Source: Chloroherpetonaceae bacterium
GTDB lineage: Bacteria; Bacteroidota; Chlorobiia; Chlorobiales; Thermochlorobacteraceae
Length of the DNA stretch: 64,000 nucleotides
Assembly: GCA_025056565.1 (NCBI GenBank)
Contig: JANWWA010000004.1
Span: 61,689 to 125,688, forward strand
Direction of reading: 5' to 3'
The notes under the pieces were generated by a model. The model was not told where the DNA came from. It did not search any database and worked only from the letters and a program-made list of their open reading frames with translations. The translations under genes were made by a program, and so were the position numbers. The first letter of the stretch is position 1, and every line of letters starts with the position of its first letter. Below, piece after piece: positions 11,728 to 37,922 of this stretch.

Positions 11728-11913
11728 AGTTTTTCTCCTTTGCGATTAAAGGTTTGTAAGAAACATATCCTCAAAAGTCAGCAACCCGTAGGGCTGCGCT
11801 ACTCTTTTTGCCTCAGCGGGCAGAGGTTACTTCTGATGTGAATTTAGACAAGGCAGGCGGCTTTTCAAAGAAAATTGTAACGACCGAATCGACTTTATCA
11901 GCAGTGAACAGGG

Positions 11914-33473: not shown

Positions 33474-33797
33474 TCAGCGAGCAAAGAAAGGCTTGTCGTA
33501 GAGTTCCAGTCGCTTTTCAGGCGTGTAGCGAAAGTCGAGAATATCGCCTTCGGGACGCACTTCAATAAGAGCACCAGAAGGACAAGCATCTGCATCAAAG
33601 CATAGCTGGCAGGAAATGCATGCCTTCTGGTCAATATAGTAACGGAATCCACCTTCCTGCACATCACCGTAGAGCTTGACGCCGATGGCGTTCACTTTCG
33701 GTGGACATTGGTCTAAGCAGAACCCGCAAGCGATGCAGAGATTTTCAATGATGTCGTATTTGTTCTTTACCCGCTTTTTGACCTTTGCTTCTGCCAT
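33474..33797 (-). CDS. pscB: reaction-centre Fe-S subunit PscB (FA/FB 2x[4Fe-4S] protein), short form
   Basis: Two cluster motifs, CIACGFCLDQCP and CISCQLCFDADACP. ATG at 33797 with GGAGG 7 nt upstream. Lies 154 nt downstream of pscA on the same strand. Maximum ORF length is 107 aa. Confidence 0.85.
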   Translation of the reverse strand: MAEAKVKKRVKNKYDIIENLCIACGFCLDQCPPKVNAIGVKLYGDVQEGGFRYYIDQKACISCQLCFDADACPSGALIEVRPEGDILDFRYTPEKRLELYDKPFFAR

Positions 33798-33951: not shown

Positions 33952-36243
33952 CTACGCAATCAGTTTCAGCAGGAAGTCCACCACTTGCGCCAGCATATCG
34001 CTACCTGCACGGGCGGCGTCGCTAACAGGTGGCGGTGCAGGTTGATTCGTAGCGTAGAAGCCATTGGCAACATAGAGCCAGACCAGCATAAATGTGCCGC
34101 TGAAATAGAGAATCGTACCTGCAAACTTCGAGTCCGAAAGGTTCAGCACTGGGAAGCGGAACTTGACGTCGCGTCCAAGGAGAGCTTTGCCCAGCCAGCG
34201 AATCGTGCGGGTTTGAATGTCCGCACCTTCCAGACGAGAGCCTCTATCCTTGAACCAGACGGCAAAGCTGATGAACCAGACAAGGTGTCCAAGCAGCAAG
34301 ACGACGGTCAAGTGCGAGCTTGCCCAGATTGCTTGGGTTTCCGTCCACATATAGTAGAAGACACCGCCTGTGTAGTGATGGTTGAGCTTGGCAATTGCAT
34401 CCCACGCATTGCAGTCCGCTACAGCCATACCGTAGTTCATTGACGCCAGCCAGCCACCGTCAATATACCATTCAATGACGGAGAGCGGTTTCACAGACCA
34501 GAGAATCGCAAACCACATCTGGTCTTGAATTGAGACGCCGCATGTGCCGCCATAGACAGGGCCGATGCACGGGAACGAGAAGGAGTTCTTCTTCAGACCC
34601 AGGTCATCCCAGAGCGCCGAAGTATGTGAGAAGAACGCAATGCGTGAAGTCGCCACTGATGCAAAGAGCCAGCCTGCTACAATCGCATGCCAAGCGCACC
34701 AGTCATTGATACTGGGGTCAGTGAACATCCACGCAAACATCGGTGTGGGCTTCAGCCAGTAGAAGCTCATTGTGATGTTTGCGCCCATCATATTGAGTTC
34801 GCACAGCGAGTTCCAGCAAATTACGGCATAAACCGAAATCATCGTTGTGAAGCACAGCACCATAATCGTGCCGACAAACTTCACTTGGAATTCCTTGTTG
34901 CGTCCCAGCGCAATCCACTTCGACTTCAACTGATTGTAAAGGCCAGACATTTGAATCTTCAACAGATATTGCCCGCCATGAAAGACGCCTGAGAACACAT
35001 AGAGGAATCCACAGATGATATGGTTAAATGCCACAAGGTTGATGACCACCTGCGCCATACCAAACACCTTGCCATCTTTGGGCAGAATGGCATAAGGCGG
35101 ATATTCAGGATACTCCACCTTGCTCAGGTCAGTGTTGCCAAATTCATCAAAGCCCACGCGGTTAAAGGGTTCGCCATAGATGTAGTAGACCAAATCATTG
35201 AGCTGCGTGTAGAAGAACTGTGGTCTATCCGTGAAGGCAGCAAAGGCAAACCAGCCAAGGGCGATATTGACGTAGCCCATTGAGGTAAGGTGCACCGAGA
35301 AGATAGCGCGAAGGTCGTCGTTGAGATGTTCGGCGACGCGCGGTGGATTGGCTTTCCAGTAGAAGCCCAGTGCTAGCCAGACCGCTGCCCAGATAAAGGA
35401 CATAAAGGCTTCGGAGTTGATTTTCTGGAAGTTAGGCTCAGGGGTGATGCCTAAAACAAACCACATCACAAAGCCCCACGCCAGAAAGAGGAAGCCTTGA
35501 TAAATCGTGTGCGGTCCAAGTGCTTCGGCGTAGTTTTTGGCACTGGGGCCGCCGATACCACCGGGGATAATGCTACCGAACATTCGGAAATCACGGAAGT
35601 TGCCCGGCACACTGGCTTGCTTATAGTTCCAAAAGAAAAGGAACGCCAGTGGGTTTGAAAGGTTGCTCGTCCAGTGTCGCCAACCACCGAAGATAAGGAA
35701 GGCACCCACGACAAAGTGAATACCAGCCCACCAGAGCAGCTTGCGTGCAGCTTCCATTTGCGCAGCCGGTTCTGTGCTGTAGGTATCAATACCAAGCGAC
35801 ACCAAGCGAGGCTTGATGGTCAGGTAGAACCAGTTGTCATAGAACCCGGGTGCACCGTTCGGGAAAATCTGAATGCCTGAAATGTAATAGATACCCATCA
35901 CGATGCCCAAGCAGCCCAGCAACGCAAGATGACCGCCGAAGACTTGTTCGTCGGTGAGCTTGTCAACATCGAAGGCTTGATACCACTTAGTCGTGCGGGT
36001 TTCCGTGCGTTTTAGGAGGAAGCGCTTCATCTCGGCCACATCTGCCTCCATCACGGCGGGTTTGGCAGGTGCAGCTGCAGGCTTGGCTTCACCGGCCTTC
36101 GGTGCTGCTTTTGCTGCAGCGGCTTGCGCAGCAGCAGGTTTCTTGGCAGCAGCTTGAAGTTTCCCGGCTTGAGTAGGCACAGGTTTCTTTTCGCCGCCAC
36201 CGCCTTCTGGTGTTCCGCCAGTCGGTTTCTCTTGGTCAGCCAT
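33952..36243 (-). CDS. pscA: type-I photosynthetic reaction-centre core subunit PscA
   Basis: 763-aa polytopic protein with the FX-cluster loop FPCIGPVYGGTCGVSIQDQ (FPCxGPxxGGTC). Long colinear resemblance, from memory, to green-sulfur-bacterial PscA (KWYQAFD, GHLALLG, GIQIFPNGAPGF, GGWRHWT, EGADIQTRTIRWLGK). SD AAGGAG upstream of the ATG at 36243. Confidence 0.95.
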   Translation of the reverse strand: MADQEKPTGGTPEGGGGEKKPVPTQAGKLQAAAKKPAAAQAAAAKAAPKAGEAKPAAAPAKPAVMEADVAEMKRFLLKRTETRTTKWYQAFDVDKLTDEQVFGGHLALLGCLGIVMGIYYISGIQIFPNGAPGFYDNWFYLTIKPRLVSLGIDTYSTEPAAQMEAARKLLWWAGIHFVVGAFLIFGGWRHWTSNLSNPLAFLFFWNYKQASVPGNFRDFRMFGSIIPGGIGGPSAKNYAEALGPHTIYQGFLFLAWGFVMWFVLGITPEPNFQKINSEAFMSFIWAAVWLALGFYWKANPPRVAEHLNDDLRAIFSVHLTSMGYVNIALGWFAFAAFTDRPQFFYTQLNDLVYYIYGEPFNRVGFDEFGNTDLSKVEYPEYPPYAILPKDGKVFGMAQVVINLVAFNHIICGFLYVFSGVFHGGQYLLKIQMSGLYNQLKSKWIALGRNKEFQVKFVGTIMVLCFTTMISVYAVICWNSLCELNMMGANITMSFYWLKPTPMFAWMFTDPSINDWCAWHAIVAGWLFASVATSRIAFFSHTSALWDDLGLKKNSFSFPCIGPVYGGTCGVSIQDQMWFAILWSVKPLSVIEWYIDGGWLASMNYGMAVADCNAWDAIAKLNHHYTGGVFYYMWTETQAIWASSHLTVVLLLGHLVWFISFAVWFKDRGSRLEGADIQTRTIRWLGKALLGRDVKFRFPVLNLSDSKFAGTILYFSGTFMLVWLYVANGFYATNQPAPPPVSDAARAGSDMLAQVVDFLLKLIA

Positions 36244-36561
36244 AGTTTTCTCCTTTCAAAAAAGTTTGAAACAAGTGAAGAAATGTTCGCCGTGCCTAAC
36301 CGTTCATTTTCAGCGGCGAACGAACGCTTCAAGTTTGAACCGTGCTTTGCCCGCGTTACTGCAAAGCACGCTGGGTACTGCTTCAAACTTTTCAAAGAAC
36401 AATGCACAACTCATGCGTTACTGCAAGTTACGACTACTGCGGATACTGCTTCTCACCGATGCCTCAGCAAGCGTGAGCCTTACTATTGCATCAGGTGAGA
36501 AAGAACAGCGTTTGTTTCGGTTGCGGTTGAGGCGAAAAGTCAAAGAACACGGTGAAAACTC
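36244..36561 (-). promoter_or_regulatory. repeat-rich pscA upstream/leader region (candidate promoter, operator sites and 5' UTR structure)
   Basis: Five TACTGC hexamers (36357, 36376, 36419, 36435, 36444). Exact 12-nt direct repeat GCGTTACTGCAA (36353-36364 and 36415-36426). 10-bp perfect inverted repeat 36341-36350 / 36361-36370, nested inside AAGTTTGAA / TTCAAACTT (36331-36339 / 36382-36390). Confidence 0.5.
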
Positions 36562-37626
36562 CTAATTTTTCAAGGATTGGTTACGCGAGGTGCCCGTGCC
36601 TCGGTAAAGAATTTCGAAATTCTCTCTGAGGTATTGCTCCAGCTCAGTGCAAGTTTTGGCGCGGAAATCGGCTTCAAAAGGCTGCGATTTGCGCTCGCCG
36701 GTAAACTGTCCGCCTAAGATGAAGCGAACCCCACGCTTTTTGAGGAACTTTCTAAACAATTCAAAGCGCCGATAGGTCGCTGGTCGCACGCGAGCCGTTG
36801 TAACCGACATATAGACAATTGCTGGGTGCACCTCATCGACCACTCGCTCTAAATCTTTGAATGGCACAGCGGCACCAACATAGCTAACCTCCATTCCCAT
36901 ACTTTGGCACACCAGCGATACACCGAGTAGACCAACTTCGTGATACTCGGACTCTGGGCAAGTGCATACCAGTGCGACAGGCTTTGCCAGCGGCATCATA
37001 GCAGGCATAGCATCATCAGTCTTCCTGCCGTTCTGCGAGACGGCATTCATCGTCAGCCCAACATTGATGCCAAGGCCTTCGCGTGGCGACTTTTCTGGGT
37101 GCAGCAACCCTTTTTCGTAGCGTGTTTTGACTGCTAAAACGGCTTCAATGACGATGTTGGTGATAATGTGCTCCTCACCGATACCTAATTTTTTCTGCGC
37201 CCAAAGTTCGCCAACTCGGTACATTGCTGGGGCTATCATCTTGTCAAAGAGCGTAGCAAAGGAAATGCCGTGTTCTACAGCTTTGCTGAGGAGCGCTTCC
37301 ACTTCATTTTTGCGGAAACCTAAGAGCAGTTCAGTGAGCTTGTGCGCCAGCGCATTCACATCGCCGCGCACCAGAAGTATTTCGCTGTTGAGGTCGATAT
37401 AGTCCGCATAACTTTTCTCCAGATTCAAGCGCTCCAGTCGGTCGGGCGGAATTTCAATGTTGTTTTTGCTAATGAATTCCAGCACATCCTCGAGTTTGAA
37501 CTTGCGATGTCCACCGACGGTTTTGTGGTGCTTAATCAGCCCCATATTAGACCAGCGCTTGACGGTGGTCTCACCGACTGCGCATAGCTCCGAAAGCTCT
37601 TTGGTTGAGAAAAACTGCGTCGTCAT
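36562..37626 (-). CDS. MerR-family transcriptional regulator with B12-binding domain (CarH/LitR-like)
   Basis: N-terminal HTH FSTKELSELCAVGETTVKRWSNMGLIKHHKTVGGHRKF. Helical cap with VGELWAQKKLGIGEEHIITN. Rossmann-type B12-binding module with CPESEYHEVGLLG, VYMSVTT, ILGGQ. ATG at 37626 with GAGGAG upstream. Confidence 0.8.
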   Translation of the reverse strand: MTTQFFSTKELSELCAVGETTVKRWSNMGLIKHHKTVGGHRKFKLEDVLEFISKNNIEIPPDRLERLNLEKSYADYIDLNSEILLVRGDVNALAHKLTELLLGFRKNEVEALLSKAVEHGISFATLFDKMIAPAMYRVGELWAQKKLGIGEEHIITNIVIEAVLAVKTRYEKGLLHPEKSPREGLGINVGLTMNAVSQNGRKTDDAMPAMMPLAKPVALVCTCPESEYHEVGLLGVSLVCQSMGMEVSYVGAAVPFKDLERVVDEVHPAIVYMSVTTARVRPATYRRFELFRKFLKKRGVRFILGGQFTGERKSQPFEADFRAKTCTELEQYLRENFEILYRGTGTSRNQSLKN

Positions 37627-37922
37627 ACTTCGGCGCTCCTCGTTTCGGTTACTTCAAGCGCGGCACAGCTGCCGTGCTGGTGCTCCTGCTGCGATGCTAA
37701 CTTACAAAAAGCCCTCCCACTCTGCAACTTTTAACCGTGCCGAAAAACGGCTTCACAGGGCACTTTTTACAGCGCACAAGTCTTATGCTGCCCAACGATT
37801 AGGCGTAAAAACGACCGTTTCGGCTCTCAAACGACCGATATGGCAACTCTATCCCTCTCTTTGCTGAAAAGCATAGTGAGAGCAGAAAGAATTGAGCAGC
37901 TATCAACCTTGTCAGCAAGGGG

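Follow-up and report, generated by a model that had tools for sequence, protein, structure and literature searches.

A predicted CtMerR-like cobalamin-binding regulator encoded before the reaction-centre gene pscA in Chloroherpetonaceae, and its candidate 9-bp tandem operator

The stretch of DNA analysed here (the window) comprises 64,000 nucleotides of contig JANWWA010000004.1 from a Chloroherpetonaceae bacterium (assembly GCA_025056565.1), and on its minus strand it carries a gene for a predicted vitamin B12 (cobalamin)-binding transcription factor, followed by genes of the type-I photosynthetic reaction centre. The coding sequence of this regulator (36562..37626, 354 amino acids [aa]) is separated by a spacer of 318 nt (36244..36561) from pscA (33952..36243), which lies on the same strand and encodes the reaction-centre core subunit, a protein of 763 aa with a PsaA_PsaB match and an Ala/Pro/Lys-rich N-terminal extension. 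Next comes pscB (33474..33797, minus strand), encoding the 107-aa 2x[4Fe-4S] subunit with matches to Fer4_7 and related families. The neighbours on either side in the window are housekeeping genes, namely mnmE, the gene of a protein secreted by the type IX secretion system, prfA, a ROK kinase gene, the gene of DsbD, and others. The initial annotation of this DNA had described the regulator as B12-photoreceptor-like and of the CarH/LitR type, co-oriented with pscA and 318 nt upstream of it; the placement is confirmed, and the assignment to this type needs correction.

The exact translation of the open reading frame, Pfam, and an AlphaFold model with fold search agree on the three parts that had been described for it, a helix-turn-helix (HTH) head, a helical cap and a Rossmann module. 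The head (residues 1-55, 37462..37626, minus strand as for all parts of the gene) is a BldC/excisionase-like winged HTH with the pattern TVKRW...GGHRKF, which is matched by HTH_BldC and by HTH_17 (residues 6-55, E 1.1e-9) and is nearly invariant in the family. The cap is a helical bundle (residues 90-171, 37114..37359; predicted local distance difference test [pLDDT] score >90) that carries W142 and E152-H153 in the upper-ligand pocket and matches B12-binding_2 (PF02607) at residues 94-163 with E 4.1e-13. The third part is a Rossmann-type cobalamin-binding domain (residues 217-336, 36619..36978), identified by Pfam, by Foldseek and by the alignment of H229, the predicted lower axial ligand; its match to B12-binding (PF02310) at residues 219-308 is significant (E 1.8e-6), with a score of 28.2 bits that is below the gathering cut-off of 32.1. 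The motifs quoted in the initial annotation are all present in the protein (GELWA at 139-143, EEH at 151-153, PESEYHEVG at 224-232, YMSVTT at 272-277 and ILGGQ at 303-307), and those of the Rossmann domain comprise ExHxxG with H229, GxxxP as GAAVP at 251-255, SVT at 274-276 and GG at 305-306. The AlphaFold model, built from a family alignment of 24 sequences, is confident (mean pLDDT 81.3, predicted TM-score 0.75) and consists of the small winged HTH, linker helices, the helical bundle and a five-stranded Rossmann domain, with disorder at residues 179-211 (pLDDT <50) and 341-354. The insert of about 45 residues between cap and Rossmann domain (residues ~171-216, 36979..37113), which had been singled out as atypical, is indeed present, and from alignment and pLDDT we read it as a disordered, poorly conserved linker that is specific to the clade: it occurs only in the Chloroherpetonaceae tier of the alignment, is missing from the nearest outgroup, and varies in sequence and length among orthologues.

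CarH/LitR proteins are adenosylcobalamin (AdoCbl) photoreceptor repressors of Thermus thermophilus, Myxococcus xanthus and Bacillus megaterium (PDB 5C8D/E/F), and the assignment of the regulator to this type stood for the residues of its B12 module and fell for its DNA-binding head. The best sequence match in the PDB is 8jbs, at E 1.5e-25 versus 3.8e-8 for the CarH of T. thermophilus (TtCarH), and the top Foldseek matches are 8jbs and 8jbt (E ~1e-12, target TM-score 0.82-0.85, root-mean-square deviation 3.3-3.5 A). When the N-terminal 71 aa were compared with the PDB separately, they matched CtMerR (8jbs) at 2e-8 over residues 3-52, BldC (6ama) at 1.6e-3 and TtCarH at 0.9, and in NCBIfam the regulator matched HTH_BldC at 1.9e-9 and reached only 46.8 bits against the CarH equivalog TransRegCarH, whose cut-off is 400. 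CtMerR is a MerR-family protein of Chloracidobacterium thermophilum (WP_157850694, PDB 8JBS/8JBT; Yu et al., FEBS J 2024, PMC11796333). Its B12 domain takes up AdoCbl, which is photolysed by green light of 530 nm while the protein shifts from tetramer to monomer, and its DNA-binding domain is unlike that of CarH (PMC11796333). Because the DNA-binding head and the fold are closest to CtMerR while the identity is only 26-29%, the regulator is, by sequence and model, filed as a divergent subfamily of the CtMerR kind and not as CarH/LitR; that it is a B12-binding transcription factor of this kind can be said with high confidence.

The likeness to CtMerR extends over the three-part architecture, the BldC-like HTH (TVKRW...GGHR[KR]F), the closest cobalamin-domain fold, and the retained Trp, Glu-His, lower-ligand His and GxxxP. 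In neither protein is the Trp followed by a His, so that the bis-His state is missing from both, and both come from type-I reaction-centre phototrophs of hot-spring mats. In contrast to CtMerR, the Chloroherpetonaceae proteins have the disordered insert and carry Ser, Ile or Phe in place of the glycine of the GxxH motif. With CarH/LitR the regulator shares the helical cap and Rossmann B12 module and an N-terminal head that is distantly related to MerR, and by analogy a dark-state oligomer on direct repeats is likely; it differs in that the head is not CarH-like and in that it adjoins pscA and pscB, whereas the targets of CarH/LitR are carotenoid genes, and no carotenoid genes were found among the neighbours examined. 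Streptomyces BldC (PDB 6AMA/6AMK) resembles the regulator in HTH sequence, including the Arg that reads a C-G pair, but is a stand-alone domain of 68 residues with no effector module, whereas the head here is fused to a B12 sensor. Finally, AerR/PpaA are likewise cobalamin-binding proteins tied to photosystem gene expression, but they have no DNA-binding domain, act via CrtJ/PpsR and bind photolysed (hydroxo)cobalamin, whereas the regulator has its own N-terminal HTH; they are not detectably its closest relatives, and none of the neighbouring genes examined resembles PpsR/CrtJ.

In a HMMER alignment to Thermus CarH/LitR (3whp, 5c8d), W142, E152, H153 and H229 stand opposite W131, E141, H142 and H177 of TtCarH, in agreement with the equivalences that the initial annotation had predicted. 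Residue conservation was scored in the alignment of 24 homologues, which holds two sequence tiers, and W142, E152, H153, H229, P255 and G305-G306 are invariant there, as are K23, R24, W25, G38, H40 and R41 of the HTH. TtCarH H132, which forms the bis-His cobalamin adduct of the light state, is opposite A143 of the regulator, and orthologues carry A, N, S, C, E, D or Q at this position. The bis-His histidine is likewise missing from CtMerR, which has Arg there and is nevertheless light-responsive (PMC11796333). The SignatureFinder motifs GxxW, EH, GxxH and GxxxP separate light-responsive from light-independent B12 domains, and three of the four are present in the regulator (GxxW as GELW, EH, and GxxxP as GAAVP). 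By analogy with the characterised proteins, we consider it probable that the regulator is light-responsive through AdoCbl.

A homologue search that covered 5.8 billion proteins returned 44 proteins with the same architecture at 51-100% identity to the regulator; below this, identity drops off a cliff to ~32% in Blastocatellia, followed by Myxococcota and others. Nearly all orthologues with a named source come from Chloroherpetonaceae, Chlorobiales, Ca. Thermochlorobacter or Chloroherpeton thalassium; several JGI entries have functional names only. One orthologue (P0035) is labelled Rhizobacter sp., but its contig carries pscA, and this looks like a mis-binned contig. In a species-level genome collection the orthologue was found in twelve Chloroherpetonaceae genomes, which together with C. 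thalassium gives 13 loci beside the window; the 14 loci fall into six clades. In all 13 of them, as in the window (14/14), pscA follows the regulator on the same strand, with spacers of 142-356 nt in the 13, even though the flanking genes vary among the loci and identity falls as low as 50% for the regulator, against 69-96% for PscA. Compared with Ca. Thermochlorobacter, the regulator of the window is 76-78% identical to its orthologues while PscA is 96% identical, so that the regulator evolves much faster than pscA; identity of the window PscA to that of Chlorobiaceae is 60-62%. The synteny with pscA foreseen for relatives thus holds, and the regulator-pscA pairing is a family-specific, strongly conserved trait of the Chloroherpetonaceae. 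It does not extend to Chlorobiota-type phototrophs in general, for in Chlorobiaceae (Prosthecochloris, Chlorobium and relatives) the gene preceding pscA is a divergent dapF and those examined show no trace of the regulator, and pscA was present in 0/70 homologue loci from other phyla. Downstream, the order pscA-pscB-GT2-EF-G is common to Chlorobiaceae and Chloroherpeton. Besides the window, pscB follows pscA in six of the 13 related loci (L001, L004-L006, L013, L014; 77-99% identical), whereas in clade C (L007-L011, L015) it was not found within ~4-7 kb downstream of pscA; because the pscB adjacency is lost in this clade, the link between regulator and pscA is more conserved than that between pscA and pscB.

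A promoter-like block, TTTG-N(~19)-TTTTyGTAAGTT, precedes the regulator in all 14 loci, and the gene has a conserved Shine-Dalgarno sequence. In the window the block reads TTTG...TTTTTGTAAGTT and includes a putative promoter, TTGCAG-N17-TAAGTT (37699..37727, minus strand). Direct repeats of 9 bp in tandem, AGCCGAAAC-GGTCGTTTT-TACGCCTAA (37799..37825, minus strand), stand approximately 75 bp upstream of this block, and we regard them as a candidate operator; a further copy of the 9-bp unit, CGGTCGTTT, is found at 37829-37837 on the same strand. Across the 14 loci the array has the consensus rGyCGwTTw in two to three tandem units, and its position is conserved in all six clades. A position weight matrix (PWM) trained with one clade left out at a time recovered the array in 5/6 clades within at most 0.5% of background (scores reached by 0-4 of 850 windows). 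With the PWM that leaves out the clade of the window, no tandem match on either strand of the 64-kb window scores higher than the array (16.0 versus 12.6 for the next); the second-best match (11877-11894) lies between a TonB-dependent receptor gene and an unknown gene and is uninformative.

Related arrays also accompany homologues in other phyla. At 21 of the 70 loci the array ranks in the top 5% of the locus's own background, versus 3.5 expected, with examples such as GAGCGTTTC-GAGCGTTTC and GAACGTTTT-GAGCGATTC, and a cross-phylum PWM built from other phyla only (consensus GAGCGATTT-GAGCGATTC) picks up the Chloroherpetonaceae arrays of clades B, C and E. A tandem array, GAACGTTTT-GAACGTTTC, likewise lies 5' of the gene at a CtMerR-type locus (L091). 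The presence of related arrays beside homologues of other phyla makes it likely that the tandem 9-bp repeat is an operator. BldC protomers bind 9-bp direct repeats of the form AATTxxxx(C) head-to-tail, for example AATTCGGTC-GAATTTCGC (PMC5859096), an operator that closely resembles GGTCGATTT-GGTCGATTT. The 9-bp period of the arrays and their layout of A/T-tract plus C-G agree with BldC operators, and the equivalent of BldC Arg30, which reads the C-G pair, is the invariant R24 (with an inferred offset in residue numbering). CarH/LitR, in contrast, use 11-bp repeats that overlap the target promoter. Taken at the level of sequence, this is good evidence that the tandem 9-bp repeats would be the cognate operator of the CtMerR-type HTH family and that the regulator would be autoregulated.

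Two other explanations of these upstream sequences were considered and rejected. The scan of the window flags the array as terminator-like, but as a general explanation the idea that it is merely the terminator of the upstream gene fails: elsewhere the arrays are pure direct repeats, and in other loci the real terminators of unrelated upstream genes lie further upstream than the array. In the window only, the CGGTCGTTT copy and the array (37812-37837) can form a weak, G-U-containing hairpin followed by TTTTT, and here the element may double as terminator of the upstream mnmE. The second candidate was the 11-mer TTTTGTAAGTT, which is the -10-like block of the Chloroherpetonaceae regulator promoter (37699-37712 in the window) and which also occurs upstream of the CtMerR-type gene on L091 (7437-7990), a GC-rich Chloracidobacterium-like contig, with a second copy, TTTGTAAGAC, 71 nt away. 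As a family-wide operator it was discarded: among non-Chlorobiota loci the full motif occurs only at the Chloracidobacterium-type locus, and its 7-mer core TTGTAAG has one more occurrence, in L019.

The spacer between regulator and pscA (36244..36561, minus strand) had been proposed in the initial annotation as the region to examine for binding of the protein. The sole operator-like element found in the window, however, is the array at 37799-37825, upstream of the regulator itself. Since the element lies 5' of the regulator and not in the spacer, control of pscA is something we infer from synteny and from the lack of a terminator. The terminator scan found an intrinsic terminator in none of the 14 regulator-pscA spacers, while the same scan reported canonical terminators upstream of the regulator in six loci (L001, L004, L005, L007, L012 and the window, where the site overlaps the array) and weaker terminator-like matches in L008, L010 and L011. 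The absence of a terminator between regulator and pscA in 14/14 genomes makes read-through into pscA plausible. In clade C, moreover, the cross-phylum PWM detects a second, conserved array inside the regulator-pscA spacer.

The explanation that we consider best overall, with a probability of roughly 0.55, is that the gene encodes an AdoCbl-dependent regulator of the CtMerR family through which reaction-centre synthesis would be tuned to light and to B12 supply. In darkness, the protein with bound AdoCbl would form an oligomer, a tetramer by analogy with CtMerR and TtCarH, whose HTH heads may bind the tandem 9-bp repeats head-to-tail as BldC does. Light would then cleave the Co-C bond, the oligomer would fall apart as in CtMerR and TtCarH, and the DNA would be released. 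Transcripts started at the regulated promoter would probably continue into pscA, or into pscA and pscB. Under the logic known from CarH, the genes would be repressed in the dark and expressed in the light. Most Thermochlorobacter genes peak by day, which would fit this logic, in a study that does not mention pscA (PMC11788075). The parts of this proposal are not equally strong: whether the regulator controls pscA, as the genome organisation suggests, is an evenly balanced question, and the most specific version, in which a cobalamin photoreceptor directly gates the regulator-pscA-pscB unit through an AdoCbl-bound oligomer that sits on the 9-bp repeats in BldC fashion and is released in light, is tentative and falls somewhat short of even odds.

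Several observations weigh against this explanation. At the operator, one repeat unit in the window's clade is an A-tract variant that scores poorly with the cross-phylum PWM, and ~75 bp separate the array from the putative -35 hexamer downstream of it, an unusual distance if the protein were a simple repressor. In the spacer of the window, no 9-bp array was found with either the Chlorobiota PWM or the independent cross-phylum PWM, and the regulator upstream region and the pscA spacer have no motif in common, a comparison of the two for shared 11-mers, genome by genome, having yielded nothing consistent across clades. It is very likely that pscA has a strong promoter of its own, and read-through may therefore contribute little. 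In the protein, the fourth SignatureFinder motif, GxxH, reads SEYH, with Ser226 replacing Gly (Ile or Phe in some orthologues). At the position of TtCarH His132 stands Ala, so that the chemistry of the light state may differ. The closest characterised relative, finally, adjoins a polyprenyl synthetase operon and not photosystem genes.

Part of this evidence would suit a genuine B12/light regulator that has its targets elsewhere, for example among carotenoid, isoprenoid or photoprotection genes as in CarH/LitR and probably CtMerR, and that only autoregulates here, its adjacency to pscA being without regulatory meaning. The array of the window stands upstream of the regulator and the spacer has none; on a hot-spring contig, an orthologue 84% identical to CtMerR is divergent from the polyprenyl synthetase operon, which is a CarH-like isoprenoid context; and the Blastocatellia homologues (L002, L003; ~32% identical) are not near photosystem genes, being consistently convergent with a large sigma-70 (RpoD-like) gene and downstream of an acyl carrier protein synthase gene. 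Set against this is an adjacency to pscA that persists on the same strand in 14 genomes of six clades despite differing flanks and the loss of pscB from one clade, together with the terminator-free spacers and the spacer array of clade C. Without some functional coupling, conservation of this kind is difficult to account for, and we consider targets elsewhere unlikely, though still the strongest competitor of reaction-centre control.

Bacteriochlorophyll synthesis depends on B12 through radical-SAM/B12 enzymes such as BchE, BchQ and BchR, and the B12-binding AerR/PpaA of purple bacteria are established as coupling cobalamin to photosystem gene expression. It is conceivable that the regulator senses cobalamin supply and not light, matching the reaction-centre apoprotein to B12-dependent bacteriochlorophyll synthesis with photolysis as an incidental event. 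The B12 ligand residues are conserved, the glycine of GxxH is not, and the bis-His histidine is absent, all of which would be compatible with a supply sensor. But W142 and E152-H153, which hold the 5'-deoxyadenosyl group and mark light-responsive domains in SignatureFinder, are invariant, and CtMerR responds to light with the same histidine missing; we rate a pure supply sensor as distinctly improbable, below the placement of the targets elsewhere. That the open reading frame is a decayed remnant or arose by chance, as the slightly subthreshold PF02310 score and the long disordered insert might suggest, is effectively refuted by conservation, given 44 intact orthologues, invariant HTH and ligand residues, a confident model, and a conserved promoter block and Shine-Dalgarno sequence.

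The spacer has features of its own, which suggest a separate pscA promoter and a structured leader of ~140 nt, and we draw no connection between them and the regulator. On the pscA coding strand (minus), five GCAGTA-like units form a cluster at 36331..36480, upstream of and overlapping a conserved block, GTTCTTTGAAAAGTTTGAAGCAGTACC (36374-36400). Nowhere else in the 64-kb window are such units as dense (5 per 120 nt versus 0.23 expected). The cluster is strand-specific and has some units spaced 9 nt apart; clades A-D have between 1 and 6 copies, clade E has one isolated copy and clade F has none. The leader has two hairpins, at 36285-36321 (proximal) and 36331-36390, of which the proximal one (minus strand) consists of GTTCGCCG and CGGCGAAC around a AAAATGAAC loop. 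All ten sequences of clades A-C fold into the proximal hairpin around an invariant AAAUGAAC with clade-specific complementary arms (GUUCGCC/GGCGAAC, GUUCAGA/UCUGAAC, CGCGCC/GGCGCG and CGUGUCG/CGACACG); the 5' GUUC is invariant and could instead pair with GAAC of the loop. In a covariation run on this hairpin, MAFFT put the clade-specific arms out of register and RNAalifold picked the invariant GUUCG/UGAAC pairing. An Rfam scan of the whole window returned no family at threshold, neither a B12 riboswitch nor another known RNA.

Some observations on the proteins may be added. The N-terminal extension of the window PscA comprises ~60 Ala/Pro/Lys-rich residues (36055-36243). PscB has 107 aa here and 111 aa in C. 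thalassium, whereas in Chlorobiaceae (L084-L090) PscB has 243-317 aa and PscA 731-774 aa, and it seems that the low-complexity extension is carried by a different subunit in Chloroherpetonaceae than in Chlorobiaceae. The nearest relatives of the regulator from outside the family are acidobacterial, and this may point to an ancient transfer between phototrophs that live in mats.

The kind of photoreceptor is not itself new, as CarH has been known since 2011-2015 and CtMerR since 2024. A search of the literature available to us found no link between CarH or other B12 photoreceptors and Chloroherpeton, Chlorobi or pscA. Three things appear to be new: a subfamily, found in Chloroherpetonaceae, that has the insert and a changed GxxH motif, the fixed place of a B12 regulator before a type-I reaction-centre gene, and the predicted 9-bp tandem operator for the whole CtMerR family. 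To our knowledge, almost nothing has been reported on the control of reaction-centre synthesis in Chlorobiota; they have few regulators, and no light sensor has been described as serving this control. In the Chloroherpetonaceae, pscA has a B12 sensor of the photoreceptor type as its fixed neighbour across the whole family, including the culturable C. thalassium and aerobic photoheterotrophs (Ca. Thermochlorobacter), which have to keep a type-I centre from operating in bright, oxic surroundings. The description of CtMerR gives neither DNA targets nor genomic context, and its physiological role is unreported there (PMC11796333). The CtMerR photoreceptor family gains a predicted operator, 9-bp tandem repeats with BldC-like binding, and a first candidate physiological role, and thermophile-derived green-light switches with a DNA-binding head other than that of CarH may also serve optogenetics. 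If true, our proposal would establish, for the first time in Chlorobiota, that a photoreceptor controls reaction-centre synthesis, and it would give the CtMerR family its first operator and physiological target.

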